Source: Dehalococcoides sp. JdFR-54 (GTDB lineage: Bacteria; Chloroflexota; Dehalococcoidia; JdFR-54). Taken from it: a DNA stretch of 64,000 nucleotides. Position 1 is the stretch's first letter; every line of letters begins with the position of its first letter. Below are positions 13,418 to 53,100 of this stretch, piece after piece. The DNA lies in assembly GCA_002011475.1 (NCBI GenBank), contig MTNP01000005.1:15336-79335 (forward strand). The letters run 5' to 3'. Below the pieces are notes generated by a model. The model was not told the DNA's origin and ran no database searches. It was given only the letters and a program-made list of their open reading frames with translations. A program made the position numbers and the translations under genes.

Positions 13418-13437
13418 GGACACGCCAAATTTAAAAA

Positions 13438-13467
13438 ACAGGGGTCGAAGGGCGACCCTTGTTTTTT
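13438..13467 (+). terminator. intrinsic terminator/attenuator hairpin between acsB and acsD
   Basis: AAAAAACAGGGGTCG-AAGGG-CGACCCTTGTTTTTTGG: a 10-bp stem (one G.U), 5-nt loop, and A-tract/T-tract flanks. It could work on either strand, since acsB is plus-strand and no convergent gene exists. Confidence 0.6.
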
Positions 13468-13506
13468 GGGTTGAAGGTCTTAGTTTTTCGGGAAAGGAGA
13501 CCAAGG

Positions 13507-14448: not shown

Positions 14449-14463
14449 CGAGAGGAGGCAACC

Positions 14464-15816: not shown

Positions 15817-15817
15817 T

Positions 15818-16606
15818 TTGAGCCCGAAGACGGTTACCATAGCCATCGCTGGCAAGGGGGGCACGGGCAAGACCACCATCGCCGCCCTGCTGGCCAGCAT
15901 ATTTTCCCAGAAAGGGGTGGTGCTGGCCATCGACGGCGACCCCAGCACCAATCTGCACCTGTCCCTGGGCCTGTCCCTAGAGAATACGGTGGGGGCGGTG
16001 CGAGAGGACATGCTCCGACAGGCGAGGGGGGGAGGCCCCAGCCTGGGCATGGCCAAGCTGGACTATCTGGACCTGAAGATCCACGAGTGCCTAGTGGAAT
16101 CCACGGGCATCGATCTTCTGGCCATGGGCAGGCCGGAGGGGCCGGGGTGTTATTGCGCCGCCAACAATATGCTGCGCACCTGTATCGACCGCTTGGCCAG
16201 TAACTACGATTATGTGGTCATCGACACCGAGGCGGGTATGGAGCACATCAGCCGCCAGACCACCCGGGATGTGGACATCCTGCTCCTCATCTCCGACCCC
16301 ACCCTGAGGGGCGTCATCAGCGCCGTCCGGATGAAGGAGCTCATCGGGGAGCTCCGCACCCGGGTGGGTCGGATCGCCTTGGTGATAAACCGCCAGGATG
16401 GCGAGCTGTCGCCGGAGGTCCTGGGGGTGATCCGGGACCGGGGCCTGGAGCTGGTGGGCTCCCTTCCCAACGACCCCCACATGGCCGGGCTGGAAGCCCG
16501 GGGGAGACCCCTGACCGAGCTACCCCAGGATTCGCCCCTGCGGGTGGGCGTGCTCGCCATAGCCCGCCGGCTGGGCCTGGTCGAGGCCGAAAGCAAAGTC
16601 AGCTAG
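15818..16606 (+). CDS. cooC: CooC/AcsF-type Ni-insertion ATPase
   Basis: Deviant Walker A IAIAGKGGTGKTT plus a CxC region. The TTG start lies 1 nt after the acsC stop. Confidence 0.85.
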   Translation: MSPKTVTIAIAGKGGTGKTTIAALLASIFSQKGVVLAIDGDPSTNLHLSLGLSLENTVGAVREDMLRQARGGGPSLGMAKLDYLDLKIHECLVESTGIDLLAMGRPEGPGCYCAANNMLRTCIDRLASNYDYVVIDTEAGMEHISRQTTRDVDILLLISDPTLRGVISAVRMKELIGELRTRVGRIALVINRQDGELSPEVLGVIRDRGLELVGSLPNDPHMAGLEARGRPLTELPQDSPLRVGVLAIARRLGLVEAESKVS

Positions 16607-16618
16607 AGGAGAAAGGCT

Positions 16619-17539
16619 ATGTTCCTTATTGGAGAGTCCATCCATGTCATCTCGCCCAAGGTCAGGGCAGCCATCGAGAGCCGGGACAAGGCCCTTATCC
16701 AGGAACTGGCCCAGCGCCAAGTGGAGAAAGGAGCCCATTGCCTGGACCTGAACATCGGCCCCCAGAAGAAGGCCGGCACCGAGGTCATGCCCTGGATGGT
16801 TGAGACCGTCCAGGAGGTGGTCGATGTCCCCCTCTCCCTGGATACCACCAATGTCGCCGCCATGGAGGCTGGCCTTCAGGTGTGCAAGAAACAGGCCATC
16901 ATCAATAGCACCGATGCCACCCCGGAGCGCCTCCACGCCCTGATGCCCCTGGCCGCCAAGTACAATGCCCGGATCATCGCCCTGTCCTTGGCAGCCACCG
17001 GCCTGCCCACTAGCGCCGATGCCCGCATCACGCTGGCCTCAGAGAACCTGCTGCCGGCAGCTATGGAATACGGGGTGCCCTATGAGAATATTTACCTCGA
17101 CCCCCTGGTGCTCACCGTCAACGGCAACCAGGACCAGGCCCTGGCCACGGTGGAGGCGGTGCGCCTCTTCAAGCAGATGACCGACCCCCCCTGCCTCACC
17201 ACCTGCGGCCTGTCCAACGTCTCCAATAGCTGTCCCAATGAACTGCGCTCCCTGCTCAACCGGGTGTTCCTGGTGATGCTCATGGGCGCCGGCCTGGACT
17301 CGGCCATCGCCGATGCCCTGGATGACGAGCTTCTGGAAACCATCCGCATTGTGGAGAGCCGAGATACCTCCACCCCCAAGGGCCAGCTCTATATAGACCT
17401 CTTCGATACCTACCAAGCGGGCGGGGAGTTCGACCCCAGCGGCGTAGATATGAGCAACCCCGAGCTCAGCGACATCGTCAAGACCATAAAGGTCTTCGAG
17501 AACAAAACCCTGTACGCCCACGGCTACCTGAGGCTATAG
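16619..17539 (+). CDS. acsE: methyltetrahydrofolate:corrinoid/iron-sulfur protein methyltransferase
   Basis: MFLIGESIHV...GAHCLDLNIGP follows the Moorella MeTr pattern MLIIGERIN...GARALDLNVGP. Confidence 0.85.
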   Translation: MFLIGESIHVISPKVRAAIESRDKALIQELAQRQVEKGAHCLDLNIGPQKKAGTEVMPWMVETVQEVVDVPLSLDTTNVAAMEAGLQVCKKQAIINSTDATPERLHALMPLAAKYNARIIALSLAATGLPTSADARITLASENLLPAAMEYGVPYENIYLDPLVLTVNGNQDQALATVEAVRLFKQMTDPPCLTTCGLSNVSNSCPNELRSLLNRVFLVMLMGAGLDSAIADALDDELLETIRIVESRDTSTPKGQLYIDLFDTYQAGGEFDPSGVDMSNPELSDIVKTIKVFENKTLYAHGYLRL

Positions 17540-31441: not shown

Positions 31442-32332
31442 ATGGCAGCAAAGATTATCTCGGGGACGGAGGTGGCAGCGGAGATTCGGGGAGAGCTGAA
31501 GCAGAAGGTGGCTGAGCTGAAGGAGAAGGGGATAACCCCCGGGCTAGGGGTCATCCTGGTGGGGGAGGATCCAGCTTCCGTCTCCTACGTTACCGGCAAG
31601 GCCAAGGGATGTGAGGAGATAGGGATATTTGAGGAGACCTTCAGGCTCCCCGCCGAGGCTACGGAAGAGGAAGTCCTGGCCATGGTGGACAGGCTGAATA
31701 AGGACCCCAGGTTCCACGGCATCCTGGTGCAGCTTCCCCTGCCCAAGCATATCGACGAGAAGAAGGTGTTGGTGGCCATCTCGCCGGAGAAGGATGTGGA
31801 CTGCTTCCACCCGGTGAATGTGGGCAAGTTGCTCATAGGCGAGGCCGATTTCCTGCCCTGCACCCCCCACGGCGTGCAGCAGCTCTTGGTCAGGAGCGGC
31901 AACAGCCCCGAGGGCAAGCACGTGGTCATCTGCGGCCGGAGCAACATCGTGGGCAAGCCCCTGATGGCCATGCTGGTCCAGAAGGCCAAGGGGGCCAACG
32001 CCACCATCACCGTGTGCCATACCGGGACCAGGGACCTGGCCTCTGTTACCCGGCAAGCCGACATCCTGGTAGCAGCGGCGGGTTCCCCACAGATGATCAA
32101 GGCAGATATGGTTAAGGAGGGAGCCGTGGTCATCGATGTCGGGGTCAATCGCATCCCCGATGAGACCAAGAAGAGCGGCTTCCGCCTGGTGGGGGATGTG
32201 GACTTCGAGGCTGTGGCCGAAAAGGCTTCGGCCATTACCCCGGTGCCTGGGGGCGTGGGGCCGATGACGGTGACCATGCTCCTGGTGAACACGGTGCGAG
32301 CTGCCGAGAGGCAGGCCGCAGCCAGGACATAG
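31442..32332 (+). CDS. folD: bifunctional 5,10-methylene-THF dehydrogenase / methenyl-THF cyclohydrolase
   Basis: [37 protein letters not shown], and 296 aa. Confidence 0.9.
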
Positions 32333-32386
32333 TCCACCAAGCCCTCGCCATCCGCTAAATAAAGAATTATTAGTGGAGGAGGCCAG

Positions 32387-34150
32387 ATGCCTTATGATGC
32401 GCTAAAAATGAAGGATTGGGAGATCGCAGAAGCAGCCGAAGCTAATATGCCAACCCCCGATGAATGGCGAGAAAGACTTAACTTGCAAAAGGATGAGATT
32501 ATCCCCTATGGGAGACTGTGCAGACTTGATTTCATGAAGATCATCGAGCGCCTCAAGGACAAGCCGGACGGCAAGTACATTGAGGTGACGGCCATTACCC
32601 CCACGCCGCTGGGAGAAGGAAAGACCACAACCACCCTGGGCATCCTGGAGGGCCTGGGCAAGCGGGGCAAGAATGTGGGCGGCTGCATCCGCCAGCCCTC
32701 AGGTGGTCCCACCATGAATATCAAGGGAACCGCCGCCGGTGGTGGCAATGCCCTGCTCATTCCCATGACCGAATTCTCCATGGGACTTACCGGCGATATA
32801 AATGATATAGGCAATGCCCACAACCTGGCCATGGTGGCGCTTACCGCCAGAATGCAGCACGAGCGCAACTATAGCGATGAGGAACTGGCCAGTCGCAGCC
32901 GGATGCGCCGCCTGGACGTTGACCCTACCAGGGTGGAGATGTGCTGGGTTATGGATTTTTGCGCCCAGAGCCTGCGCAATATCATCATCGGCCTTGGCGG
33001 CCCCATGGATGGCTTCCTGATGCAGTCCAAGTTCGCCATCACCGTGAGCTCCGAGCTCATGGCCATGCTGTCCATTGCCAGGGACCTGGCGGACCTGCGG
33101 GAAAGGATGGATAACATCACCGTGGCGTTCGATAAAAGGGGTAAACCCATCACCACGGGCGATCTGGAAGTGGGTGGCGCCATGACGGCCTGGATGCGCA
33201 ACACCATCAATCCCACCCTGTGTTGCACTGTAGAGTATCAGCCTGTGATGGTGCATGCCGGCCCCTTTGCCAACATCGCGGTGGGCCAGTCCTCCATCAT
33301 TGCCGACCGCATTGGCCTGAAGATGTTTGACTACCATGTCACCGAAAGCGGCTTCGGGGCAGATATCGGTTTCGAGAAGTTCTGGAACGTCAAGTGCCGC
33401 TTGAGTGGTCTCAAACCACACGTTTCGGTGCTAACCACCACCATCCGGGCCCTGAAGATGCATGGCGGCGGACCCAGGGTGGTGGCTGGCCTTCCCCTAT
33501 CCGAAGAGTACACTAAGGAGAACCTGGAGCTCTTGGAAAAGGGCCTGGCCAACATGCTGCACCACATAAACATCATCAGAACCTCTGGCATTAACCCGGT
33601 GGTGTGCATCAACTCCTTCCACACCGACACCAAGGATGAGATCGCCATGGTCCGAAGGGCGGCCGAGGCGGCCGGTGCCCGCTGTGCTGTGGCTACCCAC
33701 TGGGCCCACGGGGGCGATGGCGCCCTGGAGCTGGCCGATGCGGTTATAGAAGCCTGCGAAGAGAAGAATGAATTCAAATTCCTGTATCCCATGGAAATGA
33801 AATTGCGGGAGCGGGTGGACAGGATCGCCAAAGTAGTTTATGGCGCCGATGGCGTGACCTGGACCCCTGAGGCCGAGGCCAAGGCCAAAATGCTCGAGGC
33901 CGATCCCAAATACGATGAGTACTCCACAATGATGGTGAAAACCCACCTGAGCCTCACCCACGATCCGGCCATCAAGGGTGTTCCCAAGGGGTGGACACTG
34001 CCCATACGCGACGTGCTGATCTATTCCGGGGCGAAGTTCCTCTGCCCCTGTGCCGGGACCATTAGCCTGATGCCGGGAACCAGTTCCGACCCGGCCTTCA
34101 GAAGGGTAGACGTCGATACCAGCACCGGTAAAGTGCGGGGGCTTTTCTAA
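32387..34150 (+). CDS. fhs: formate--tetrahydrofolate ligase
   Basis: [18 protein letters not shown]-loop motif and 587 aa. Confidence 0.9.
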
Positions 34151-34361: not shown

Positions 34362-35333
34362 GTGCTTGAAAGCGCTGAAAACTGGCTCACAGAGGTCAAA
34401 AACATAGCAGTACTTGGTGCCGGAACCATGGGACATGGCATCGGCCAGGTGTTTGCCCTGGCTGGATATGATGTCATGCTATATGATATAGACGACGCTA
34501 TCCTGCAAAGGGCCATGGCACGCATCGATTCCAACCTCGATGTTTTCATAGAAAATGGTTTGGCCACAGAGGAGGCGAAACAACGAGCGTTGTCGAAAAT
34601 CAACACCACCACAGACCTAGCTACTGCGGTCGGAGAGGCCGATTTTGTCCTAGAGGCAATCCCTGAAATGCTGGAGCTGAAACAAAAGACCTTTCACGAT
34701 GTGGAGAGGATGTGTCGTGAAGGCACTATATTGGCCAGTAACACCTCCAGCTTTACCATAAGCGATATCGGCGCCCTGTGCCAGCGGCAGGACAATCTCG
34801 CCATCGCCCACTGGTTTAACCCACCGCACATCGTGCCCCTGGTAGAGGTGGTCAAAGGCCCCAAAACCTCCCCCCAAACTGTGGAATGTATCTGTGCCCT
34901 TCTGGACAAGGTGGGCAAAAAGCCGGTGAGGATCATGAAGGAGGTGGCCGGCTTCCTGGCTAACCGGATGCAGATGGCCCTATTTCGTGAGGCCTGTTCC
35001 CTCCTTGAAAGGGGGGTGGCCGGGGCTGAAGATATCGACACCGCAGTGAAGGCCAGTTTCGGCTTCCGCTTGCCCACCATCGGCGTCTTTGAAACCATGG
35101 ACTTGGCTGGATTGGACACCGTTCTCCGGGTGGCTGAGGAACTATTCCCAGATATCGAAAACTCGATTGAGGTACCGCGATTGATAAGAGAGCTGGTGAG
35201 GCAAGGCAAGTTCGGAGCCAAGACCGGAGAGGGTGTTTACCAGTGGCCCAAACAAAAACTGGATGCCCTCATCAGAGAGAGAGACAGACAATTCCTACAA
35301 AGGTTGAAGCAGCTATATCTGGACAAGGCGTGA
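34362..35333 (+). CDS. 3-hydroxyacyl-CoA dehydrogenase-family NAD-dependent dehydrogenase (Hbd / L-carnitine dehydrogenase-like)
   Basis: GTG start with RBS AAAGGAG. It has a Rossmann N-terminus IAVLGAGTMGHGIGQVFALAGYDVMLYD and the 3HCDH C-terminal domain. Confidence 0.8.
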   Translation: MLESAENWLTEVKNIAVLGAGTMGHGIGQVFALAGYDVMLYDIDDAILQRAMARIDSNLDVFIENGLATEEAKQRALSKINTTTDLATAVGEADFVLEAIPEMLELKQKTFHDVERMCREGTILASNTSSFTISDIGALCQRQDNLAIAHWFNPPHIVPLVEVVKGPKTSPQTVECICALLDKVGKKPVRIMKEVAGFLANRMQMALFREACSLLERGVAGAEDIDTAVKASFGFRLPTIGVFETMDLAGLDTVLRVAEELFPDIENSIEVPRLIRELVRQGKFGAKTGEGVYQWPKQKLDALIRERDRQFLQRLKQLYLDKA

Positions 35334-35385
35334 GGCTGGTGCTCAGCGCGAGCAAGGCGTGGCACACATAGGAAGGAGGCAAATC

Positions 35386-36306
35386 ATGAGGAAGGTGTTC
35401 ATAACGGCGGCCATCACAGGGGCTATCCATACCCCTACTATGAGCCCCTACCTCCCCATCACCCCCGACGAGATCGTGGAAAATGCGGTAGGGGCCTGCG
35501 AGGCTGGGGCAGCTATAGCCCATATTCACGTGCGAGATCCGGAGACCGGACGGCCTGTCTCCAGGGTTGACCTCTTCCGAGACATAGCGAGCAAAATCAA
35601 GAAACGGTGCAATATGGTCCTCTGCGTCACCACCGGGGGAGGTCTGGGCCAGACCGACGAGGAGCGGCTCAGGGTGGTGCCCGAGCTACAGCCCGAACTA
35701 TGTTCCTTTAACCAGGGCTCGATGAACTTCGGCATTTTCCCCCTGCTGGAGAAGATCCCAGAGTTCAAATTCCCCTGGGAAAAATCATACATCGAAATGA
35801 CCTACGATTTTATTTTCCCGAATACCTTTAAGAGCCTCTCCAACTTCGCTCGAGCCATGTCCCAATACGGGACAAAGCCGGAGTTGGAAGTTTACGACGT
35901 GGGCATGATCAATAATGCCCGTTGGCTGATACAGCAGGGATTGCTGAAGCAACCGGTTTACATCCAGTTTGTGATGGGCATAATGGGGGGCATCCCAGCC
36001 ACGGTGGAAAACCTGGTCTTCCTCTACAAGACCGCCCGCGAGGCCATCGGCGATTTCATTTGGTCGGTAGCCGCGGCGGGGAGGAGCCAAATGCCTATGG
36101 CAGCCACCTCCCTGGCACTGGGAGGCAATGTCCGGGTTGGCCTGGAAGATGCCTTGTATGTGGGCAAGGGACAACTGGCCAAAAACAATGCCGAGCAAGT
36201 GGAGAAAGCGGTTCAAATGATAAATGCCCTTGGCCTAGAGGTGGCTACCCCTGACGACGTCAGGGAAATCTTGGGATTGAAGGGTCTGGATAAAGTGAAC
36301 TTTTAA
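35386..36306 (+). CDS. beta-keto acid cleavage enzyme (BKACE / 3-keto-5-aminohexanoate cleavage enzyme family, DUF849)
   Basis: MRKVFITAAITGAIHTP with Zn ligands of the HIH...E type. RBS GGAAGGAGG. 306 aa. Confidence 0.8.
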   Translation: MRKVFITAAITGAIHTPTMSPYLPITPDEIVENAVGACEAGAAIAHIHVRDPETGRPVSRVDLFRDIASKIKKRCNMVLCVTTGGGLGQTDEERLRVVPELQPELCSFNQGSMNFGIFPLLEKIPEFKFPWEKSYIEMTYDFIFPNTFKSLSNFARAMSQYGTKPELEVYDVGMINNARWLIQQGLLKQPVYIQFVMGIMGGIPATVENLVFLYKTAREAIGDFIWSVAAAGRSQMPMAATSLALGGNVRVGLEDALYVGKGQLAKNNAEQVEKAVQMINALGLEVATPDDVREILGLKGLDKVNF

Positions 36307-36337: not shown

Positions 36338-37600
36338 TCAGCCGGGCAACTCGAAGTATTGCATGGTGATATCGGGCACCACCGCTACCTTCGCCTTGTT
36401 GCCGAAATCGGCCTTGAGCATGCCGATCACCTCGTCCCATGTCCCAACCACATTTATGTCCTCCAGGGGGGCAAGCCAGTCTAGGCTAGCTCGATCCATA
36501 TAGGGCATGAGCAGGATGAACTTCCTGGCCCGGCTCAACTTGGGGGGGTCTTTCCACAACTGCCCCCCCGTATTCCTGCCGTGCTTCCGCATCAGGTAGT
36601 GGGGCACCTCGCCCACGGGGTTATTGCTTATCAGCACCAGGGTGCCGCCCCTTTCGGGCAGCGTGGCCTCAGCCACCCGGGCCCCGACCACGGCCTCGGT
36701 TACCTTGGCATTGCCGTTGGCCACCACTATATCGGCATCCTCTACCACGGGGCTGAGATAATGTTCCTTAGCCAGCTTCACAGCCTCATCGTACTCCAAG
36801 ATGGGGTCACCGACGAAGAGGGCCGTGGTATCCCGCTTCAGGTTGACCACGGCATCGACCTTGACATCCAGGCCCGACATCCGGCACACATCCTCCATGT
36901 CCAGGCGCATCTCGCAATCCTCGTTTCGTCCCATGCCGCCCAAGGCCTGGGGGCCCATTTTCTGAGCCTTAGCGCGGACGACCCCGTGGTTATGGACGAT
37001 GGTCTCCATGGAGGACACGCCAGGCATGATGATCTTAGCTCCGCCGCCATAGCCCACCAAGTAATGCGGTACCACACTGCCTATGCCCACCTTGAGGTCG
37101 CATCGCAGGACCTCCGAATTCACGGCCACCAGTGTGCCCCGACCGGTCTTGCCTATGTAGGTACAGTTCTCATAGGGGTTATGGTTATATACAGGGTAGC
37201 GGGCCACCACATCACTGCCCAGCTTCTTTCTGAAGTCGGCGGCGGTACAGGCTCCGTGGGTGCCCACGGCACAGATAAACTGGATGTCATCGTCCTTTAT
37301 GCCTCCCTCCCTCAGCTCCGCCAAGACATAGGGCACGATTTCCGCCGCCTTGGTAGGACGGGACAGGTCATCGAAAAGGATCACTGCATCCTTCTTGCCC
37401 CTGGCCAGCTCCCTTATAGTCTTGGTTCCTATAGGATTGGCGAACGCCTTTCGAAAGCCTTCATCGCTGAGCTTGGGAGCATCATGGCCCTTCATATGGC
37501 AGGTGATCACCTCCCAACCCTCAGGAAAAGGAAGCTGGGTATCCACATCTCCCCACCAGGAAAGCTGGGGCACCGTTGCTACATTCTCGGTCTCGAGCAT
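36338..37600 (-). CDS. larA: LarA-family Ni-pincer-cofactor-dependent 2-hydroxyacid racemase/epimerase homolog
   Basis: 420 aa with N-terminal DUF2088-type domain. Its size and overall composition resemble lactate racemase LarA. No larB/C/E are in the window. Confidence 0.65.
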   Translation of the reverse strand: MLETENVATVPQLSWWGDVDTQLPFPEGWEVITCHMKGHDAPKLSDEGFRKAFANPIGTKTIRELARGKKDAVILFDDLSRPTKAAEIVPYVLAELREGGIKDDDIQFICAVGTHGACTAADFRKKLGSDVVARYPVYNHNPYENCTYIGKTGRGTLVAVNSEVLRCDLKVGIGSVVPHYLVGYGGGAKIIMPGVSSMETIVHNHGVVRAKAQKMGPQALGGMGRNEDCEMRLDMEDVCRMSGLDVKVDAVVNLKRDTTALFVGDPILEYDEAVKLAKEHYLSPVVEDADIVVANGNAKVTEAVVGARVAEATLPERGGTLVLISNNPVGEVPHYLMRKHGRNTGGQLWKDPPKLSRARKFILLMPYMDRASLDWLAPLEDINVVGTWDEVIGMLKADFGNKAKVAVVPDITMQYFELPG

Positions 37601-37747
37601 CTTATCCTCCTCTGAGACGGGGAACCTGGGCCGACAGAGGTTCCGCCGGTTCCTTGAAAATCCAGAACAGGACGGGTATCATGTTAGCATATTATGTCCC
37701 ATTTGGGCAATCCGTGAGCGCCCTGCTTGAGAAAGGAGCCGAGAAGT

Positions 37748-38824
37748 ATGAACCGGGCAGACCTTGTCGGCAAGGTGCAGACCGTACTGGGAATCATTGA
37801 CCCCCAGGATCTGGGTATCACCCTCACTCATGAGCATTGCCTCCTCGATATGGCGGTTTGGTTTATGGAGCCCGCCGAGGCTAGCCAGAGGGCCCTGGCC
37901 CACCAGCCCATCACCCTGGAGAACATCGGTTGGGTGCGCTATCACCCCATGAGCCACCGGGAGAACCTGCGACTCCTCGATGAAGAGCTGGCCATAAAGG
38001 AGCTGCAACTCTACAAGTTGGCCGGGGGCCACAGTCTGGTCGATGTCACCAATATCGGCCTGGCCCGGGACCCTATGGCGCTGAGGCGCATCGCCCGAGC
38101 CACCGGCCTCAACATCATTATGGGCTCGGGCTACTACGCAGGGCCAGCCCATCCGCCGGAGGTGGAGGGAAAGACCGAAGAGGAGATCGCCGAGGAAATC
38201 GTGCATGACATCATGGTGGGGGTAGCCGATACCGGGGTTCGCGCCGGGATCATCGGCGAGCTCGGCTGCTCCTGGCCGCTCATGGACAGCGAGCGCAAGG
38301 TGCTGCGGGCCGGCGCCCGGGCGCAGCAGCTCACCGGGGCAGCCTTGACCATCCACCCCGGACGCCACGAGTCCGCCTACCGCGAAGTCCTTGACTTCCT
38401 GGGCAATGCCGGGGCTGACCTCAGCCGCACCATCATCGACCATTTTGACCGCTGCCTTTTCGACCGTGACCGGCGCCTCAAGCTGGTTGAGGATTGCGCC
38501 AAAACGGGCTGTTACATCGAATACGACCTCTTCGGCTGGGAAGGCTATTATCCCTTCGCCCTGGCCCCCCAGGCGGGGTTCGATCTGCCCAACGACCGGC
38601 AGCGGGTGGACGATATCTCCAGGCTGATCGACCGGGGATACTTGAACCAGATAGTGGTGGGGCAGGACATGTGTATGAAGATGCGCCTCTGCCGCTATGG
38701 TGGTCATGGCTATGCCCACATTCTGGACAATGTGCTGCCCCGGATGCGGGACCACGGCATCTCCGATGAGGCCATCCATACCATCCTGGTGGAAAATCCG
38801 AGGCGGGTGCTCACTTTCGTCTAG
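37748..38824 (+). CDS. phosphotriesterase-homology protein (PTE-like amidohydrolase, probable lactonase)
   Basis: ITLTHEHCLLD matches Php YTLAHEHLHID. There are binuclear-metal His motifs. RBS AAAGGAG. Confidence 0.8.
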   Translation: MNRADLVGKVQTVLGIIDPQDLGITLTHEHCLLDMAVWFMEPAEASQRALAHQPITLENIGWVRYHPMSHRENLRLLDEELAIKELQLYKLAGGHSLVDVTNIGLARDPMALRRIARATGLNIIMGSGYYAGPAHPPEVEGKTEEEIAEEIVHDIMVGVADTGVRAGIIGELGCSWPLMDSERKVLRAGARAQQLTGAALTIHPGRHESAYREVLDFLGNAGADLSRTIIDHFDRCLFDRDRRLKLVEDCAKTGCYIEYDLFGWEGYYPFALAPQAGFDLPNDRQRVDDISRLIDRGYLNQIVVGQDMCMKMRLCRYGGHGYAHILDNVLPRMRDHGISDEAIHTILVENPRRVLTFV

Positions 38825-38845
38825 GCGAATATCCGGGAGGCGACC

Positions 38846-39493
38846 ATGCTTGCCAAAGAGGAAGCCCTGAAAGCCATCGCGGGCTGCGGCGTCATCGCCG
38901 TGATCAGGACGGAGAGCAGCGCTCAGGCCGTAGCTGTCGCCACAGCTATCAAAGAGGGCGGCATCACTCCCATCGAGATAACCATGACCGTCCCCGGGGC
39001 CCTGGATGCCTTGAAGGAGGTGGGCCATCTCCTCAAGGGCACAGGCTTGCCGGGGGCAGGCACTGTCCTCGACCCAGAGACGGCCCGCGCCGCCATCCTG
39101 TCGGGCGCCGAATTCGTGGTCAGCCCCACCCTAAACCTGGAGGTGATCAAGCTGTGTCAGAGGTATGACAAGGTGGTCATCCCTGGCGCCTTTACCCCCA
39201 CCGAGATCCTGACCGCCTGGGAGGCGGGGGCAGACATCGTCAAGGTCTTCCCGGCCACGGTGGGCGGGCCCCAATACTTCAGGGATTTGAAGGGGCCCCT
39301 GCCCCAGATAAAGCTCCTGCCCACCGGAGGGGTGAGCCTGGAGAACACCGCCGAGTTCATCAGGGCCGGGGCGGTAGCGGTGGCGGTGGGCACCGCCCTG
39401 GTAGACAGGCAAGCGGTGGCGGAGCAGAGGTTTGAGGTTATCACTGAAAGGGCCCGCCAATTCATCGAGGCGGTGCGCCAGGGCAGGCAGTAG
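38846..39493 (+). CDS. eda: 2-dehydro-3-deoxyphosphogluconate (KDPG) / KHG aldolase
   Basis: GCGVIAVIRTES, GITPIEITMTVPGA, and 215 aa. Confidence 0.85.
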   Translation: MLAKEEALKAIAGCGVIAVIRTESSAQAVAVATAIKEGGITPIEITMTVPGALDALKEVGHLLKGTGLPGAGTVLDPETARAAILSGAEFVVSPTLNLEVIKLCQRYDKVVIPGAFTPTEILTAWEAGADIVKVFPATVGGPQYFRDLKGPLPQIKLLPTGGVSLENTAEFIRAGAVAVAVGTALVDRQAVAEQRFEVITERARQFIEAVRQGRQ

Positions 39494-39527
39494 CCCACTT
39501 TCCGCAGTCCTACCCAAGGGGGATGCT

Positions 39528-40511
39528 ATGTACGATGTTGTCACCTTCGGCGAGGCGATGATCAGGCTCTCCCCGCCTCACTTCCAAAGGCTGGAGCAGG
39601 CCCAGAGCCTGGAGGTCCAGGTGGGAGGGGCTGAGTTGAATGTGGCGGTGGCCCTGAGCCGGCTGGGGCTCCGGGTATGCTGGGTGTCGCGCCTGCCCCA
39701 GAACCCCCTGGGGGCCATGATCCGCAATAAAGCCAGGGAGCAAGGGGTGGATACCAGCCACATCCTTTGGGCCAAGGAGGGCAGGGCAGGCCTCTACTTC
39801 GTGGAATTCGGCGCCTCTCCCCGGGCCAGCCGGGTGCTCTATGACCGGGCAGCCTCAGCCATAAGCCAGATACAGCCCGGAGAGGTGGGCTGGGAGGAAA
39901 TACTGAGAAAGACCAGGCTGTTTCATGTGAGCGGCATCACCCCCGCCCTCAGCACCAGCGCCGCCCAGGCCACCGGCGAAGCCCTCCAGGTGGCCAAAAA
40001 GGTGGGCTGTACGGTGAGCTATGACCTCAACTACCGGGCCCGGCTGTGGACGGAGGAGAAGGCGAGACAGGTCCAGACCCCGTTCATGGACAAGGTGGAC
40101 ATCCTCTTCTCCACCGAGGAGGATACGGGACGGGTGTTTGGCATCAGGGGGGATGACTACCGAGCCGTGGCCCACAAGCTGGCAGAGCACTTCGGCTTCC
40201 AGGTGGTGTGCATCACCCTCCGCGAGGATATCACGGTCTGGCGCAATCGATGGACGGCCATAGCCTACTCCGAAGGGAAATTCTACGACGACCGAAGCTA
40301 TGAGGTGGAGATCGTAGACCGCCTCGGGGCCGGCGACTCCTTCGCCGCCGGCTTTATTTACGGCTATCTCGCCGGAGATATCGCCCAGGGTGTAAGGTAC
40401 GGCAATGCCCTCGCTGCCCTGAAGCACTCCATCCCCGGGGATGTGAATTGGGCGACCGGGGAGGAGATGGAGGCCCAGATCAAGGGCGCTGGGCTGCGTA
40501 TCAGCAGGTAG
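39528..40511 (+). CDS. kdgK: 2-dehydro-3-deoxygluconokinase (PfkB family)
   Basis: MYDVVTFGEAMIRLSPP N-terminus and C-terminal GAGDSFAAGFIYG anion hole. The ATG at 39528 is preferred over the upstream extension. Confidence 0.85.
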   Translation: MYDVVTFGEAMIRLSPPHFQRLEQAQSLEVQVGGAELNVAVALSRLGLRVCWVSRLPQNPLGAMIRNKAREQGVDTSHILWAKEGRAGLYFVEFGASPRASRVLYDRAASAISQIQPGEVGWEEILRKTRLFHVSGITPALSTSAAQATGEALQVAKKVGCTVSYDLNYRARLWTEEKARQVQTPFMDKVDILFSTEEDTGRVFGIRGDDYRAVAHKLAEHFGFQVVCITLREDITVWRNRWTAIAYSEGKFYDDRSYEVEIVDRLGAGDSFAAGFIYGYLAGDIAQGVRYGNALAALKHSIPGDVNWATGEEMEAQIKGAGLRISR

Positions 40512-40557
40512 GCCCAAATTGGCGACTTTTGGCCTGGAAAGGTGGTGTGGAAAGAGT

Positions 40558-40959
40558 ATGAAAGAGGAACACAGAATCATCAGGCGATCGGGGGAACGAA
40601 GGATCATCATCGCAAACTCCATTGCAACCATAGACGAGAGTAACCGGAATGATGTGGTCATTACTGGCTCTCATTGCGGCATAAACGTCGGCGAATACGC
40701 TTCAAATTTAGGGGTTCGGGGAGTCATTGGAAACGATGCCGGAAAGGGCAGGGACAACGCCGGCATCGCCGGCTTGGAAATCCTAGAGAGGCATGGCATT
40801 CCAGGGGCCGCTGTCTCCACTATGTCAGCGCGCATCGGCAATGGGATGAGCACCTATGAGGAGGGCATAATCTCCGCAGCCAATGAGGTGGCCAGGGGAT
40901 TGGGTATTGCCATCGGGATGTCGGCCAGGGAAGCCGCAGATAAGATATTTGAAAGGTGA
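40558..40959 (+). CDS. hypothetical protein (134 aa), family unassigned
   Basis: The ORF has clearly lower GC than its flanks. MKEEHRIIRRSGERRIIIANSIATIDES...VITGSHCG. I cannot place it in a family. Confidence 0.4.
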   Translation: MKEEHRIIRRSGERRIIIANSIATIDESNRNDVVITGSHCGINVGEYASNLGVRGVIGNDAGKGRDNAGIAGLEILERHGIPGAAVSTMSARIGNGMSTYEEGIISAANEVARGLGIAIGMSAREAADKIFER

Positions 40960-41002
40960 AGCGCCTGCCCCCAAGCCCTGTCCAGGCAATCCTATCCTCT
41001 GA

Positions 41003-42034
41003 TCAAGGATATAGTAGCACTTTGCCCGTTTCCCCGCCTGCCGCCAGCTCCAGGGCACTGCTGAAGTCAGCCAAGGGGAAGCGATGGGTTATCACGGGCA
41101 TGGGGTCGAACCTTCCCGACTCTAGCAGGTATTGCATCTGCCACCATGTCTGCCACATTATCCGGCCCGTGCAGCCCAGCACCGTGGCCTCTTTATAGAT
41201 GATGTCCTCGGGGGTATCCAGCTCCACCGGCGCTGAGGGCATCCCGATCAGGCTGACCCTGCCCCCCCGCCGCAGTACCTGGAAGGCCATTTTGGTGGCC
41301 TCGGTGCTGCCACTGACCTCCAGGGAGACATCCACCCCCCGACCCTCGGTAGCCTCGAGGATGGCCCTGACCACATCTTCCCTTGCGGGGTTAAGCAACC
41401 TGGCCTGGGGGGCCAACCGGTGAGCCATGGCCAGTCGGGTGGGATTGGGCTCCAAGGCGAAGACCTTGGTTGCCCCCAGGGCAGCCACGACACCGACACA
41501 AAACAGGCCGATGGGCCCGCAACCGAAAACGGCCACGCTTTTGCCGTTGATCTCCCCCGAGAGGGCGCCGTGTACCGCCACCCCCAAGGGCTCCAAGATG
41601 GCGCCCAAGTCGGCAGGGGTGTCCTTGCTGAGTCGCCAACAGCAGACGGCGGGGATTCTAGCATATTCCGCAAAGGCGCCATCGGTGTGAACGCCGATAA
41701 TGGCCATTCTCTCGCAGATATGCTGGGCCCCCGTCTGGCACTGGTAGCATTGGCCACAGGGTATGTGCGTTTCCACAGCCACCAGGTCGCCCAGCTTCGG
41801 GGTGGTCACCTGGTCGCCCACCGCCACCACCTCCCCACACGCCTCGTGGCCGAAGATCAGCGGCGGCTTGAGCCTGGCCTGGGCAAAGGGAGTCCAGTGG
41901 TAGATGTGAATATCGGTGCCGCATATAGCCGCAGCCTTCACCCGGATCAGGACATCTGTGGCCCCGATGGTGGGTATATCCACATCCAGGAGTTCGGCTC
42001 CGGGAGCCCTGCCTGTCTTCACCAAGGCTTTCAT
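41003..42034 (-). CDS. Zn-dependent medium-chain alcohol/polyol dehydrogenase (threonine-3-/sorbitol-dehydrogenase family)
   Basis: GHEACGEV catalytic Zn motif, structural Zn CGQCYQCQTG, and Rossmann VFGCGPIGL. Confidence 0.8.
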   Translation of the reverse strand: MKALVKTGRAPGAELLDVDIPTIGATDVLIRVKAAAICGTDIHIYHWTPFAQARLKPPLIFGHEACGEVVAVGDQVTTPKLGDLVAVETHIPCGQCYQCQTGAQHICERMAIIGVHTDGAFAEYARIPAVCCWRLSKDTPADLGAILEPLGVAVHGALSGEINGKSVAVFGCGPIGLFCVGVVAALGATKVFALEPNPTRLAMAHRLAPQARLLNPAREDVVRAILEATEGRGVDVSLEVSGSTEATKMAFQVLRRGGRVSLIGMPSAPVELDTPEDIIYKEATVLGCTGRIMWQTWWQMQYLLESGRFDPMPVITHRFPLADFSSALELAAGGETGKVLLYP

Positions 42035-45290: not shown

Positions 45291-47957
45291 TCAAAAATGG
45301 GCCAGTAACGCCTCAATCAGGGGCGTGGCCTGCTCCTCGCTGAGGCAGTACTTCATCTCGGTAAACCTGCTTCGGAACCGGGAAATGGTCTCGGGGCAAT
45401 CCCTACCGGCCAGCACTATATCCGCCATGTAGCCGGCCAGCTCTTGGAAGTCCGGCTCTGTCATGCCGAATCTGGTCATCTCCTGGACACCCATCCTCAC
45501 CCCGCTGCTGGCGGTGAAGGTCTCATCGCCCGGTATGGCTTGGTAGTTCACAACTATGTTGTTTGCCTCCAGCCGGTGGGCCACCTCGATTCCCTTGGCA
45601 TAGTCAAATCTCAGGATCACCTGGTGGGTCTCCGTGAAGTCGATCCCGGGGTCTCCCTCTACCCGAAATCCGCACTCCTTCAGTGCCAGGGCGAAGGCCT
45701 TGGCATTGGCGATCACTTGCCTCTGGTACTCGTCTTTGAAGGCATTCATCTCGTAGGTTGCCATCAGAAGCCCCAGCAGGGTGCCCAGGTGATGATTGCT
45801 CACGCTCCCCGGGAATATTCTCCTCACTATGGCCTCCCACAGTTCAAAGGCGTCTGTGCCTTTGCTCATGTTGCTGGCGATTATCCCCCTCTGCGTGCCG
45901 AAGAAGGTTTTATGCGTTGACGCCGTTATAATATCGGCACCTTCCTCAAGGGGCTGCTGGAAATAGGGGCCGAGGAGACCAAAGACATGGGCGGTATCAT
46001 ACATGAGCGTGGGCCTGGGTCTCATACCGGCAATCATGAGGGCTATCTCCGACACGGGCTCCCGATGCAACACCGCGCTCTTGCCCAAGATGATCAGCTC
46101 AGGCTTGTGCTCCGCTATGAGTTGGGCTGTCCTGTCCAGGTCTATCTGCCACGGGTTGTCCAGCGACCAGGGGAAGTTGACGACCGCCGGCCTTCCGGTC
46201 AGGGGACTGATGGCGACATAGTCCCTCAGCGCGCCCATGGGCTGTGAGCTGAGGTGGCCTCCCATCCCAATGAAATGGTTCATAACGCTCCGGAATCTCC
46301 GCGGCTCAGCCGTCCTGTCCACCCTGTTCAGGTATTCCAATAGGCCGCTGAACACCGCGGTGTTGGCCATCTGGCCGCTGATGGGTCGGGTTTCTACCTG
46401 AGAGCAGCCGAGGAAATCCCTCATCTGTTCGGCCAACTCCTCCTCCACCTCGGCTATGAACCTTGTCCCCTGATAATAGTACGTCTCCACCTCCCCCAGG
46501 GCCTTGACTATCCGGTGCTCCGCATACCTCCCTGCTGGATCGGAGATGCTGAGCAATCTCACCAGGGGCGAGGGGGTCTGCTCAGAGGGTATCAAGTTGA
46601 TGGTGGCCCTTTGCCGCCACCGGGCATTGTCCAGGGTTTTCCTCACCAGGCTGTGAGCCAGCCCTTCCAACGTCTTTCTTGCCCCAGATGCGACCGCCTT
46701 ATCCTGATCTTCAACCAGGATTGGCCTAGCGTAGGGGGCTGCCTCGCTGCCCAGGTGCCGGCTGACCACCATGGCCGGGAGTTGCCTATCCCTTACGGAG
46801 ATCAGTAGCTCCTGCCCCTCCTTCAGGTCGGCATCGAGGTAGGCAAGGCATATCGCCCTTTTGCCTGATTGGGCGCCTGGCTTCGAAGCGACGCCCTTGC
46901 CCTCCACCCTCCAGAATGGGACCACGGTGCCGCTGGTCACGCGGCCCACCAATGCCCCGTTTAGGTAAACCTCACACCCTGCTCTGGCTACCCCATCACC
47001 CAAGACCGCTACAGGCATTATCATCCTGGGGACCAGCTGGTCCGCCTTGGGCTTGTCGAGCAGACCTTGCAGCCTTAACTTCACTTCCTCGAACTGGTTG
47101 GCCAGGGCCTCCCGGCCTATATAGTAACCCTTGTTCCTGGCGAAGCTGATGCAGTTTCCGGCTAGCCGCCCGGAGAACAGGGGTATCTCTTTCCCCTCCC
47201 CATCGTTTCCCAGCTCATGCCCATAGAGGGGGAGGTTGGCCTCAAGCCTCAAGGTGTCCCTGGCCCCCAGCCCGACAGCTACCACCCCCTCCCTGGCCCC
47301 AATTTCCAGCAAGGTGTTCCAGAGGGGGACAGCTATCTCCGCAGGGGGGAACAGCTCGAAGCCGATAGGTTCGCCGGTATAGCCTGTTCTAGCTATCGGC
47401 ACCTTTGTGCCGAATATCTCGACGGTGGTGATGGTGTTCCTGGTGGGACCGGGCAATCTCAGCCCATCACCCCCCAACACGGTCTCCAGCACCGCCTTCG
47501 ACCTGGGCCCCTGGAGCGCCAGCATGGCGATGGCAGCGGTACGGTCTTCGAGCACCACGGCGCGGAACCTTTCCTTGCGCTCTTGCAGCCACTGCCAGTC
47601 CTTTTCCGTGTTCGCAGCGTTGACCACCAGCATATACTGCTGATGGTTTATCCTGTAGAGATAGGCATCGTCAACTGCTCCCCCACTCTCGTTTGAGATG
47701 ATCGTGTACTGGGCTTGCCCTGGCTCCAATGCCTCAACGTTATTCGTTAAGACATATTGCAGGAAGGGCAGGGCATCTTCGCCACTTATTAGCAGTCTGC
47801 CCATATGAGAGAGGTCGAACAAGCCGCCGAATTTCCTGGTTGCCAGATGCTCTTGGAATATGCCCGAAGCATAGTTCAGAGGCATTTCCCAGCCGCAGAA
47901 TTCAATCATATTGGCCGCTAGTTTTATATGCTCTTGATATAAAGGTGTGCGCTTCAT
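45291..47957 (-). CDS. fusion protein: glycine-cleavage T protein (aminomethyltransferase) N-terminal ~430 aa joined to a full-length serine hydroxymethyltransferase C-terminal ~450 aa
   Basis: The N-terminal part reads MKRTPLYQEHIKLAANMIEFCGWEMPLNYASGIFQEHLATRKFGGLFDLSHMGRL (GcvT). The C-terminal part has NLIPSEQTPSP, PISGQMANTAVFSGLL, HKPELIILGKSA, MYDTAHVFGLL, ITASTHKTFFGTQRGII (PLP-Lys) and FPGSVSNHHLG, all SHMT signatures. It is one uninterrupted 895-codon frame. Confidence 0.8.
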   Translation of the reverse strand: MKRTPLYQEHIKLAANMIEFCGWEMPLNYASGIFQEHLATRKFGGLFDLSHMGRLLISGEDALPFLQYVLTNNVEALEPGQAQYTIISNESGGAVDDAYLYRINHQQYMLVVNAANTEKDWQWLQERKERFRAVVLEDRTAAIAMLALQGPRSKAVLETVLGGDGLRLPGPTRNTITTVEIFGTKVPIARTGYTGEPIGFELFPPAEIAVPLWNTLLEIGAREGVVAVGLGARDTLRLEANLPLYGHELGNDGEGKEIPLFSGRLAGNCISFARNKGYYIGREALANQFEEVKLRLQGLLDKPKADQLVPRMIMPVAVLGDGVARAGCEVYLNGALVGRVTSGTVVPFWRVEGKGVASKPGAQSGKRAICLAYLDADLKEGQELLISVRDRQLPAMVVSRHLGSEAAPYARPILVEDQDKAVASGARKTLEGLAHSLVRKTLDNARWRQRATINLIPSEQTPSPLVRLLSISDPAGRYAEHRIVKALGEVETYYYQGTRFIAEVEEELAEQMRDFLGCSQVETRPISGQMANTAVFSGLLEYLNRVDRTAEPRRFRSVMNHFIGMGGHLSSQPMGALRDYVAISPLTGRPAVVNFPWSLDNPWQIDLDRTAQLIAEHKPELIILGKSAVLHREPVSEIALMIAGMRPRPTLMYDTAHVFGLLGPYFQQPLEEGADIITASTHKTFFGTQRGIIASNMSKGTDAFELWEAIVRRIFPGSVSNHHLGTLLGLLMATYEMNAFKDEYQRQVIANAKAFALALKECGFRVEGDPGIDFTETHQVILRFDYAKGIEVAHRLEANNIVVNYQAIPGDETFTASSGVRMGVQEMTRFGMTEPDFQELAGYMADIVLAGRDCPETISRFRSRFTEMKYCLSEEQATPLIEALLAHF

Positions 47958-47962
47958 CGTTA

Positions 47963-49435
47963 TCAAGTCCTTCTGCATCGATCATTCCCTTTCGGGGTCC
48001 AGCGCAGGTTCAGCTTTCTGGCAGCCGCCACCTCATCGAGACGCCTCATCGGGGTATTATGGGGCGCCGAGTGCAAGAGCTCGGGGTTCTCTTCTGCCTC
48101 TTTGGCTATCATCTTCATGGCAGCTATAAATTCATCGAGCGTCTCCTTGCTCTCCGTTTCGGTGGGCTCTATCATCAGGGCCTGGCTGACCACCAGCGGA
48201 AAGTACATGGTGGGCGGATGAAAACCGTAGTCGAGCAATCGCTTGGCAATATCCAGGGCGGTTACCCCTTTGTCCTTCTGCCGGCTCGCCGAGATCACGA
48301 ATTCATGCAGGCAGGTTCGATCGTGGGGCAGGTGATAGTCATCCTTTAGCTTCTTTTGCAGATAATTGGCGTTGATCACCGCGTTGTCGCTGACCTCTCT
48401 CAGCCCCCCGGCCCCCAGGGTGCGTATGTAGGCATAGGCCTTCACCAATACGCCGAAGTTACCGTAAAAGGCGCTCACTTTGCCTATAGACTTGGCGGGC
48501 CGGGCGAATTCGTAGGCCGCTTGCCTTCCTTCTCTATAAATCACTACAGGGGTTGGCAGGAAGTCCTTCAGGAATTCCTTGACACAAACCGGGCCTGCTC
48601 CAGGCCCTCCCCCTCCATGGGGGGTGCTGAAGGTCTTATGCAGGTTCATTTGCACGAGATCAAATCCCAACTCCCCCAACTTGGTCCGGCCGATAACGGC
48701 ATTCAGATTGGCGCCGTCGCAGTAGAGGAGGGCACCGCAGTCGTGGACCAGTCTGCTTATCTCGAGCGTGTTACGGTCGAAGAGGCCCAGGGTGTTAGGT
48801 ATAGTGAGCATCAAGGCCGCCACCCTATCAGAGAGCTTTGGGCGTAGGTCATCCAGGTCCACATCGCCCTCCTGGGTGGACCTGACGGTCATCTGCTCAA
48901 AGCCGCACATGGTCACGGTGGCCGCGTTGGTACCGTGGGCTGTATCAGGGACCAGCATTATGTTCCTTTGGCCCTGCCCTCGGTGGCGGTGATAGGCCCT
49001 GACCATCATGGCTCCGGTCAGTTCCCCCTGAGCCCCAGCCATGGGAGCCAGACTGGTCGCATCCAGGCCCACAATCTCCGCCAGATATCCTTGAAGCTCG
49101 AACATGAGGCGAAGCGCCCCCTGAACCGTGTCCACCGGCTGGAGGGGGTGCAATTGGCTGAACCCGGGAAGCTGGGCGATAGCCTCGTGCCACTTGGGGT
49201 TATATTTCATGGTGCAACTTCCCAAGGGATAGAACCCGGTATCCACGCTGAAATTTAGGCGGCTCAGGGCGGTGAAGTACCTCACCAGCTCTATCTCGCT
49301 TACCTCGGGGAGGACGAGTTCCTCCCTGAGGAGGGAGGCATCCGGCAGCTCAGAGGGCGGCACGTCCAAGACGGGCAGGGTGCACCCCCTTGCCCCAGCC
49401 TTGCTTCTATCCAATAGCAGATCCCTCTTGCTCAT
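47963..49435 (-). CDS. gcvPB: glycine dehydrogenase (decarboxylating) subunit 2
   Basis: PLGSCTMKYNPK and the PLP motif NLHKTFSTPHGGGGPGAGP. Confidence 0.9.
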   Translation of the reverse strand: MSKRDLLLDRSKAGARGCTLPVLDVPPSELPDASLLREELVLPEVSEIELVRYFTALSRLNFSVDTGFYPLGSCTMKYNPKWHEAIAQLPGFSQLHPLQPVDTVQGALRLMFELQGYLAEIVGLDATSLAPMAGAQGELTGAMMVRAYHRHRGQGQRNIMLVPDTAHGTNAATVTMCGFEQMTVRSTQEGDVDLDDLRPKLSDRVAALMLTIPNTLGLFDRNTLEISRLVHDCGALLYCDGANLNAVIGRTKLGELGFDLVQMNLHKTFSTPHGGGGPGAGPVCVKEFLKDFLPTPVVIYREGRQAAYEFARPAKSIGKVSAFYGNFGVLVKAYAYIRTLGAGGLREVSDNAVINANYLQKKLKDDYHLPHDRTCLHEFVISASRQKDKGVTALDIAKRLLDYGFHPPTMYFPLVVSQALMIEPTETESKETLDEFIAAMKMIAKEAEENPELLHSAPHNTPMRRLDEVAAARKLNLRWTPKGNDRCRRT

Positions 49436-52807: not shown

Positions 52808-53008
52808 AATAATAAAGGGCACGCAGCCATGCGTGCCCCCTGTCCCTTTGCCTGAGAGATTCGCCCTACAACGGGCCTTCCCCTTCGGCCCCCCACATTA
52901 CGGGGTGTCTCCAGGCGGTCATCACAACTGCAGTCCTTTTGCCTGAGAGTTTCGGCCCAAACCGCGCCTTGCCCCTTCGGCTCCCCAATCATGGGGCCTC
53001 TCCTGCAG
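52808..53008 (-). ncRNA. glycine riboswitch (tandem aptamers) with intrinsic-terminator expression platform, leader of lipB-lipA-gcvH-PA-PB-(gcvT::glyA)
   Basis: Aptamer 1 (minus strand): CUGCAGGAGAGGCCCC..GGGGAGCCGAAGGGGCAAGG...ACUCUCAGGCAAAAGGACUGCAG. Aptamer 2: CCUGGAGACACCCC..GGGGGGCCGAAGGGGAAGG...AUCUCUCAGGCAAAGGGACAGG. Both carry the conserved GGAGA, CCGAAGGGG and CUCAGGCAAA(A)GGAC cores. Then comes GGGCACGCA-UGGC-UGCGUGCCC followed by UUUAUUAUU. Confidence 0.85.
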
Positions 53009-53100
53009 TTGCATTTGCAACATAGCATATGGGACAGGGTTTGTCAACCGCCCCGATTGACCGCCGGGGGTGATGGAGCCATCAGTGCCGCTGGGGGCCC

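Follow-up and report, generated by a model that had tools for sequence, protein, structure and literature searches.

Does a LarA-type racemase or epimerase that lies next to a hydrolase, an aldolase and a sugar-acid kinase belong to the same pathway as its neighbours? The question is raised by positions 36338-42034 of a 64,000-nucleotide stretch of DNA from Dehalococcoides sp. JdFR-54 (assembly GCA_002011475.1, contig MTNP01000005.1, positions 15,336 to 79,335), here called the window, in which a homolog of the lactate racemase LarA is found together with a phosphotriesterase (PTE)-family hydrolase, the aldolase gene eda, a kdgK-like PfkB kinase gene, a small open reading frame (ORF) and a zinc-dependent alcohol dehydrogenase (Zn-ADH). 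A sequence-only reading of this DNA had taken the five larger genes together as the scaffold of a candidate semi-phosphorylative Entner-Doudoroff-like route, in which the LarA homolog could supply the 2-epimerisation of an aldonate. The ORF listing and profile searches confirmed all six genes at the coordinates that it gave, and showed that they form three transcription units. We hold with moderate confidence that these units are independent and that the LarA homolog is a 2-hydroxyacid racemase resembling malate racemases. The idea of an epimerase within an aldonate route is mostly unsupported, as it fails on the strand and unit structure, on conservation, on subfamily placement, on signature residues and on the presence of a dehydratase.

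Genes were called from the ORF listing and profile searches of the 64-kb window, and all positions follow the numbering of the whole stretch. The LarA homolog (36338-37600, minus strand, 420 aa; Pfam Lar_N, PF09861, DUF2088, 185.8 bits) is monocistronic, being convergent with a beta-keto acid cleavage enzyme (BKACE) gene on one side and divergent from the PTE gene on the other, across an intergenic region of 147 bp (37601-37747). On the plus strand follow the PTE-family gene (37748-38824, 358 aa; PF02126, 262.6 bits), eda (38846-39493, 215 aa; PF01081, 138 bits), the PfkB-family kinase gene (39528-40511, 327 aa; PF00294, 153 bits) and the small gene orf133 (40558-40959, 133 aa), all co-oriented and separated by only 21, 34 and 46 bp. 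The PTE ORF extends from 37727 to 38824, with the true ATG at 37748, behind a GGAG ribosome-binding site. A promoter scan detected upstream of this gene a putative sigma-70-like site (37654-37682, plus strand, TTGAAA-17-TATCAT), recognised by consensus match alone, at 10 of 12 positions. Because of the short gaps and this promoter-like site, it is plausible that the four genes constitute one operon, ending in a 2-keto-3-deoxygluconate (KDG) kinase and 2-keto-3-deoxy-6-phosphogluconate (KDPG) aldolase step. The Zn-ADH gene (41003-42034, minus strand, 343 aa, with ADH_N and ADH_zinc_N domains) is convergent with orf133 and has a promoter-like site of its own at 42108-42080. The LarA and Zn-ADH genes thus lie on the opposite strand to the putative operon, and the stretch comprises three units rather than one cluster. 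Scans of the LarA-PTE intergenic region found no Rfam element, no regulatory RNA and no inverted-repeat operator.

The LarA homolog has the fold and the active site of its family. Its AlphaFold (AF2) model, built from an 18-sequence alignment, reached a pLDDT of 85.9 and a pTM of 0.88, and Foldseek aligned it over its full length to the LarA holoenzyme (8ezf, 6c1w) with TM scores of 0.80-0.82. Residues R81, H115, H179, K189 and H205 align to R75, H108, H174, K184 and H200 of Lactobacillus plantarum LarA1, and none of them varies among 18 homologs, in such a way that the positions binding the nickel-pincer nucleotide (NPN; R75, K184 and H200 in LarA1 numbering) and the two catalytic histidines (H108 and H174) are all kept. 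As the fold and these invariant residues are preserved, the protein is very likely an NPN enzyme, and on this point the sequence-only reading, which had proposed a Ni-pincer racemase or epimerase, is borne out by alignment and model.

The placement of the protein within the superfamily is a different matter. In phmmer searches against the PDB the best match was the malate racemase Mar2 (135 bits), followed by a broad-spectrum racemase from Isosphaera (102 bits), the lactate racemases (94-97 bits) and the single-histidine LarA homologs (LarAHs; 50-58 bits), while the apoprotein of the Thermotoga maritima gluconate epimerase GntE2 (4nar) gave 24.9 bits at 16% identity. Foldseek ordered the structures in the same way, with E values of 5e-29 for Mar2 and LarA versus 3e-13 for GntE2, which by both sequence and structure was the weakest of the LarA-family structures matched. 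A profile of the LarA-homolog family also detected Mar2, with 197 bits. Among the NCBIfam models, the protein scored 204.4 bits on LarAH6-MAR, 181 on LarAH10, 164.5 on LarAH5-MAR, 164 on LarA and 28.5 on the hexonate epimerase model NF052594; it stays below every LarAH cut-off (500 bits for LarAH6-MAR and for NF052594, 462 for LarAH5-MAR), and the alignments stop near residue 295. Five other family members likewise score best on the LarAH6 malate-racemase model, with 194-237 bits, below its cut-off. The C-terminal 105 residues (316-420) of the family showed no detectable similarity to any solved LarA in a profile search of the PDB, which returned only chance matches for this region, such as herpesvirus gB with an E value of about 0.2. 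Given the scores far below the cut-offs and the divergent C-terminal region, these comparisons assign the protein to a distinct, uncharacterised LarAH clade, to which the malate racemases are the nearest of the characterised enzymes.

The LarA superfamily does include D-gluconate 2-epimerases (PMC7583248), and the GntEs (LarAH18-20) carry E-V/S after the catalytic histidine, together with A-H at the positions of W358 and T359 (PMC7583248, PMC11770544). In the LarA homolog the first of these signatures is replaced by Y180-L181. The positions of the second, at which the malate racemases (LarAH5/6) carry H/Q-K, fall in an insertion in the HMMER alignment, and W349-K350 is a possible equivalent by manual register reasoning only, in a segment where AF2 confidence is 55-57. 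With GntE1 and GntE2 (LarAH19 and LarAH20; 4nar) the protein therefore shares superfamily and fold, and the role proposed for it would be analogous to theirs, a C2 epimerisation ahead of a KdgK/Eda-type route, but it differs in the Y-L loop, in the weakness of the match and in the lack of uxuA or gluconate genes nearby. Compared with the characterised members, it sides with the racemases and not with the aldonate epimerases, which speaks against the aldonate-epimerase idea under the refuting condition that the sequence-only reading had set itself. Its likeness to Mar2/LarAH6 (6d6z, 7s91) and Mar1/LarAH5 extends to the best sequence and profile matches, the two-domain fold and the NPN-binding and catalytic residues.

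The genomic context of LarA relatives was studied at 80 loci among the matches listed, all on metagenome contigs, with 49-65% identity and 578 kb of flanking DNA (44 loci with at least 5 kb); neighbours were clustered de novo and a neighbour-joining tree was built. At over 50% identity the family numbers more than 120 clusters, and most of these come from Chloroflexota and from sediment metagenomes. LarAHs are reported in 8 of 19 Chloroflexota genomes (PMC11770544, Table S1). None of the 80 loci contained eda, kdgK or orf133, and two contained a PTE homolog. Two clades were resolved, with the window protein on a long basal branch of its own clade. In that clade a LeuB-type dehydrogenase gene (444 bits on TIGR00169) adjoins the LarA gene at 13 loci, in eight of them at 49-79 bp, and an IOR-like 2-oxoacid:ferredoxin oxidoreductase is present at 6-7 loci; other genes found there repeatedly are those for FrhB-like, IclR and PrpD/MmgE proteins and for aldehyde:ferredoxin oxidoreductase. 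Several loci (L105, L110, L111, L005 and others) present these genes as one conserved cluster of IclR, FrhB-like, IOR alpha-beta, LeuB-type dehydrogenase, LarA homolog, PrpD/MmgE and aldehyde:ferredoxin oxidoreductase, a sign that some substituted malate-type acid may be processed anaerobically by a route not yet described. In the sister clade a split UxaA/SAF dehydratase precedes the LarA gene by 24-47 bp at 14 loci (e.g., L138, L139, L147, L167, L064 and L159), a D-2-hydroxyacid dehydrogenase accompanies this gene at 10, and genes for a short-chain dehydrogenase/reductase (SDR) and an HMGL-like lyase are found nearby. This UxaA (COG2721) neighbourhood is shared with the Mar1 group: LarAH group 5 is 100% associated with COG2721 (PMC7583248, Table S1), and Desguin et al. 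suspected for it a native substrate other than malate, such as tartrate. From these contexts we infer that the family would act on malate-like hydroxy-dicarboxylates, or on acids related to them, and so supply stereospecific enzymes.

The protein is encoded identically on contig DUEO01000012.1 of GCA_011170395.1, a metagenome-assembled genome of a Dehalococcoidia bacterium. This assembly also holds a second LarA homolog, 65% identical (DUEO01000002.1; L003, 10001-11272), which is flanked by a folC-like gene and by gatC/gatA and has no catabolic neighbours beside it. Other LarA homologs on long contigs adjoin Iso_dh/IOR or MlrC/dihydrodipicolinate synthase (DHDPS) genes. A literature search on lactate racemase in Dehalococcoidia gave nothing useful.

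For the hydrolase that opens the putative operon, the best solved relative is the phosphotriesterase-related protein (PTER) of a sponge (9efa, 312.7 bits), to which it is about 50% identical from end to end, followed by Rsp3690 of Rhodobacter (3k2g, 240.6 bits), then by Pmi1525 and Escherichia coli PHP; classical PTEs and lactonases scored about 80-100 bits. On these matches the protein is in the PTER/Rsp3690 branch, outside the known lactonase branches. Sponge PTER is an N-acetyltaurine hydrolase (PMC12873775), and Rsp3690 has been reported as an esterase (PMC5341072). With residue roles read from the PTER structure paper in 9efa numbering (PMC12873775), the metal ligands H28, H30, E171, H203, H232 and D307 are kept (H27, H29, E174, H206, H235 and D303 in PTER), as are the oxyanion tyrosine Y130 (Y131) and the anion-site residues R206, R235 and Y268 (R209, R238 and Y268, which contact the sulfonate). 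Hence PTER (9efa/9efb), Rsp3690 (3k2g) and the window protein have in common a Glu-bridged binuclear metal site, an Arg/Arg/Tyr anion site, the oxyanion tyrosine and a helical insertion. This insertion is of the eukaryote type (PTER residues 35-75), with an unbroken alignment across it, and the gate residue F270 is also present. The window protein differs in that the proposed general acid of PTER, His305, is replaced by Cys309 and the gate residue Phe34 by Met35, and in its bacterial context, which is an eda/kdgK operon here and an RraA-like aldolase with a tripartite ATP-independent periplasmic (TRAP) transporter in close relatives. A PTER-like amidase role is conceivable for it. A literature search on cog1735 lactonases gave nothing useful.

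For the hydrolase, 80 genome loci among the matches listed were surveyed, almost all from Dehalococcoidia or SAR202, with 48-61% identity and 1215 kb of flanking DNA. Again, none of them had eda, kdgK or orf133, and these genes were also missing beside the four closest relatives (65-76% identity); a LarA homolog was found at one locus (L064). Within 4 kb, the most recurrent neighbour was a RidA-like protein (22 loci, at a median distance of 64 bp), followed by an SDR (15), the TRAP transporter subunit DctM (11), a class IV aminotransferase (10), an RraA-like aldolase (7), an enolase-superfamily protein (7) and an HpcH aldolase (6). The RraA-like gene lies 42-53 bp from the hydrolase gene, usually in the arrangement DctPQM-RraA-PTE, and adjoins three of the four closest homologs. 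An operon of DctP, DctQ, DctM, an RraA-like aldolase and a PTER-like hydrolase is conserved in Dehalococcoidia (L012, L015, L021, L023 and L045; also L177, L179 and L091). The bacterial relatives of PTER seem, then, to be tied to the uptake of anionic substrates and to pyruvate aldolases. Because PTE homologs often accompany a pyruvate aldolase of a differing family, the pairing of PTE with Eda in the window looks functional; a lactonase or esterase role would agree with it. Of the lactonase-type assignment made at the outset, what stands is that some homologs lie near pyruvate aldolases, SDRs and enolase-type dehydratases, while the protein itself falls in the PTER/Rsp3690 branch and not in a known lactonase branch.

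The remaining genes could be named with varying precision. The aldolase gene eda passes the TIGR01182 model for KDPG/4-hydroxy-2-oxoglutarate (KHG) aldolase (190.9 bits versus a cut-off of 156.05). The kinase has as its best NCBIfam matches the kinase half of a KHG/KDPG aldolase-kinase fusion (389 bits) and the haloarchaeal kinase of KDG and 2-keto-3-deoxygalactonate (318 bits versus a cut-off of 440); it is nearest to KDG kinases and under every equivalog cut-off. The KDG kinase and KDPG aldolase step is present at the locus with this reservation about the kinase. The pair resembles the KdgK-Eda module of semi-phosphorylative Entner-Doudoroff and uronate pathways, where a PfkB KDG-type kinase adjoins a KDPG/KHG aldolase, and differs from it in lacking any dehydratase, uronate isomerase or reductase, sugar transporter or regulator within 82 kb (the window plus 10 kb beyond each end; record 34375-116281). 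The dehydratases looked for in these 82 kb were of the ILVD/EDD, enolase-superfamily, UxaA and UxuA types. Neither were larB, larC or larE found there, nor in 21 kb around the LarA paralog, so that the absence of these genes and of a sugar-acid dehydratase, already pointed out for the window, was confirmed and extended to 10 kb on either side.

The small ORF, described earlier as a 134-aa gene of low GC content between kdgK and the ADH, is a real ORF in that place, with 133 codons plus a stop. The segment 40500-40999 has a GC content of 0.544, compared with about 0.62-0.65 next door, and the segment 35500-35999 has 0.538. A foreign origin of orf133 on account of its low GC was considered and rejected, in view of the similar GC content in neighbouring genes and of the conserved homologs of the protein (40 clusters), and the value is not anomalous. 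The protein has a distant DUF1805-like fold. Two metagenome contigs that are related yet distinct (L093, 3377-5597; L181, 3348-5538) carry a pair of DUF1805-like genes in tandem, with TRAP transporter genes on one side and, on the other, a Zn-ADH of the threonine dehydrogenase (Tdh) family that is 61-62% identical to that of the window; because of this adjacency, orf133 is tied to the Zn-ADH rather than to kdgK. The Zn-ADH itself scores best as a threonine dehydrogenase, passing NF003808 (391.8 bits, cut-off 380) and failing TIGR00692 (384.4 bits, cut-off 458), with no kbl gene near it. It is indeed a Zn-ADH, as proposed, and belongs to the Tdh family rather than being a generic polyol dehydrogenase.

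Under the reading that we favour, the LarA homolog is a stand-alone gene and would encode an NPN-dependent 2-hydroxy-acid racemase or epimerase. By proton-coupled hydride transfer, using two histidines and the lysine-tethered NPN, the enzyme would invert C2 of a malate-like hydroxy-dicarboxylic acid or of another small 2-hydroxy acid, and the product would be delivered to stereospecific dehydrogenases or dehydratases encoded elsewhere. Across the intergenic region, the PTER-type two-metal hydrolase would open an anionic ester, lactone or amide; KdgK would phosphorylate a 2-keto-3-deoxy acid, and Eda would split the phosphorylated product into pyruvate and an aldehyde. The Tdh-family Zn-ADH would be functionally paired with the DUF1805-like small protein and not with LarA. 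Several observations weigh against this reading or soften it. The long basal branch of the protein makes the transfer of context from its relatives weak. The specificity loop (residues around 330-350) is modelled with low confidence, and Y294, Q295 and K298 of LarA1, which bind the substrate carboxylate, align to T301, E302 and V305, so that the Y-Q-x-x-K carboxylate motif reads T-E-A-V-V in a region of the profile alignment with indels, with an invariant K299 two residues ahead of T301; both points leave the predicted substrate soft. The link from the hydrolase to KdgK and Eda comes from this single locus. The 147 bp shared by LarA and the putative operon are a divergent promoter region, a common layout for co-regulated genes. 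Finally, PTE and LarA homologs are immediate neighbours at two other loci. In L064 the two genes are convergent, a UxaA dehydratase lies further out and an enolase-family gene is close by; in L154 they share a strand and a DHDPS-family aldolase follows. A functional tie between them may therefore exist in some lineages.

These adjacencies also speak for the Entner-Doudoroff-like route, in which the ADH oxidises a sugar, the hydrolase acts as lactonase, LarA inverts C2 of the aldonate and KDG for KdgK and Eda is formed by a dehydratase whose gene lies elsewhere. All the named genes are adjacent, sister-clade LarA genes lie close to UxaA-family dehydratases (altronate/galactarate-type), relatives of the hydrolase are found near SDRs, enolase-superfamily dehydratases and pyruvate aldolases, and the superfamily includes the D-gluconate 2-epimerases mentioned above. 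Nevertheless, we regard this route as quite unlikely: eda and kdgK were absent from all 160 surveyed loci, LarA is a divergent lone gene that shares the other strand with an ADH of the Tdh family, found elsewhere with orf133 relatives and TRAP transporters, no sugar-acid dehydratase is present in the 82 kb, and LarA is nearest to Mar2 and LarA, farthest from GntE2, without the GntE loop and with 28.5 of the 500 bits on the hexonate-epimerase model. As for the adjacencies themselves, two PTE matches in 578 kb of LarA flanks are about what chance would give for a multi-copy family. Somewhat less unlikely, if still improbable, is that the hydrolase works as an amidohydrolase in the manner of PTER and removes the acyl group from an N-acyl amino-sulfonate or beta-amino acid, for example N-acetyltaurine, the four genes being merely co-transcribed with no chemical link to Eda and KdgK. 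The closeness to sponge PTER, the retained metal, oxyanion and anion-site residues, gate residue F270 and helical insertion all speak for it, as do the TRAP transporters, RidA-like proteins and class IV aminotransferases beside its relatives, which suggest amino-compound metabolism, and an eda/kdgK neighbourhood unique to this genome among the surveyed loci. Set against them are the Cys309 and Met35 substitutions, the esterase activity reported for the bacterial Rsp3690 and the RraA-like aldolases next to close relatives, a parallel to the PTE-Eda pair that would place hydrolase and aldolase on one carbon skeleton.

The apparent loss of the K298 equivalent and the lack of larB, larC and larE around both paralogs could also indicate that no cofactor is supplied to the LarA homolog, which would then be an orphan, inactive or with a different chemistry; LarAH groups lacking K298 may catalyse other hydride-mediated reactions (PMC7583248). 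This we consider highly improbable. The NPN-tethering lysine, the Ni-binding histidine, the equivalent of Arg75 and both catalytic histidines are invariant across the family and the genome keeps two paralogs, which imply purifying selection on NPN chemistry; LarAHs are carried by 8 of 19 Chloroflexota genomes, and the search for larBCE covered about 100 kb of the genome only. A broader proposal would join the two halves of the locus: the PTER-like hydrolases of Dehalococcoidia and SAR202 would serve an undescribed catabolic route for an anionic lactone, ester or N-acyl compound, together with a pyruvate aldolase (Eda in the window, an RraA-like or HpcH enzyme at other loci) and often a TRAP transporter, and a few lineages, the present one among them, would recruit a LarA-type NPN epimerase to set the C2 stereochemistry of the ring-opened hydroxy acid. 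It is a speculative and unlikely proposal. Racemisation of sulfolactate was considered as well, with the UxaA/SAF dehydratase presumably akin to SuyAB and PTER acting on a taurine derivative, and was not adopted.

The window and the 10 kb on each side of it consist of core metabolism, with Wood-Ljungdahl, folate, glycine-cleavage, tricarboxylic acid cycle and ATP-synthase genes, as well as hypA-F, succinyl-CoA ligase, lipoate and tRNA synthetase genes. Convergent with LarA, a 3-hydroxyacyl-CoA dehydrogenase gene followed by the BKACE gene (34362-36306, plus strand) may form a beta-keto-acid cleavage module unrelated to LarA; the BKACE protein scored 421.7 bits on the 3,5-dioxohexanoate:acetyl-CoA acetone transferase model, whose cut-off is 430. 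Wood-Ljungdahl genes occupy 11195-17539 and 31442-34150 (both plus strand), with the beta subunit of acetyl-CoA synthase/carbon monoxide dehydrogenase, two CdhD-type corrinoid subunits, a CooC-like ATPase, a pterin-binding methyltransferase, folD and fhs, and with hypA-F between the two stretches. A single ORF of 895 aa (45291-47978, minus strand) encodes an unusual fusion of a GCV_T domain (residues 13-259) with serine hydroxymethyltransferase (447-851). A glycine riboswitch aptamer (52921-53015, minus strand; RF00504, 68.3 bits) lies upstream of the minus-strand genes for lipoate ligase and synthase, the gcvP subunits and this fusion, in such a way that glycine seems to regulate the glycine-cleavage block as a whole.

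Substrates have been assigned to only about half of the LarA superfamily, and the LarA of the window is an ordinary uncharacterised homolog that offers modest leads for substrate discovery. Its adjacency to the KDG operon in this genome should not be read as a pathway. Of more use is its clade, in which the C-terminal substrate region diverges and two contexts stand out clearly, one with LeuB, IOR and PrpD and the other with UxaA and a D-2-hydroxyacid dehydrogenase, which give substrate hypotheses of malate-, alkylmalate- or tartrate-like acids. As regards the hydrolase, PTER is an obesity-linked enzyme, and no physiological role is known for its close bacterial relatives; that they are coupled to pyruvate aldolases and TRAP transporters offers a usable starting point for finding one.

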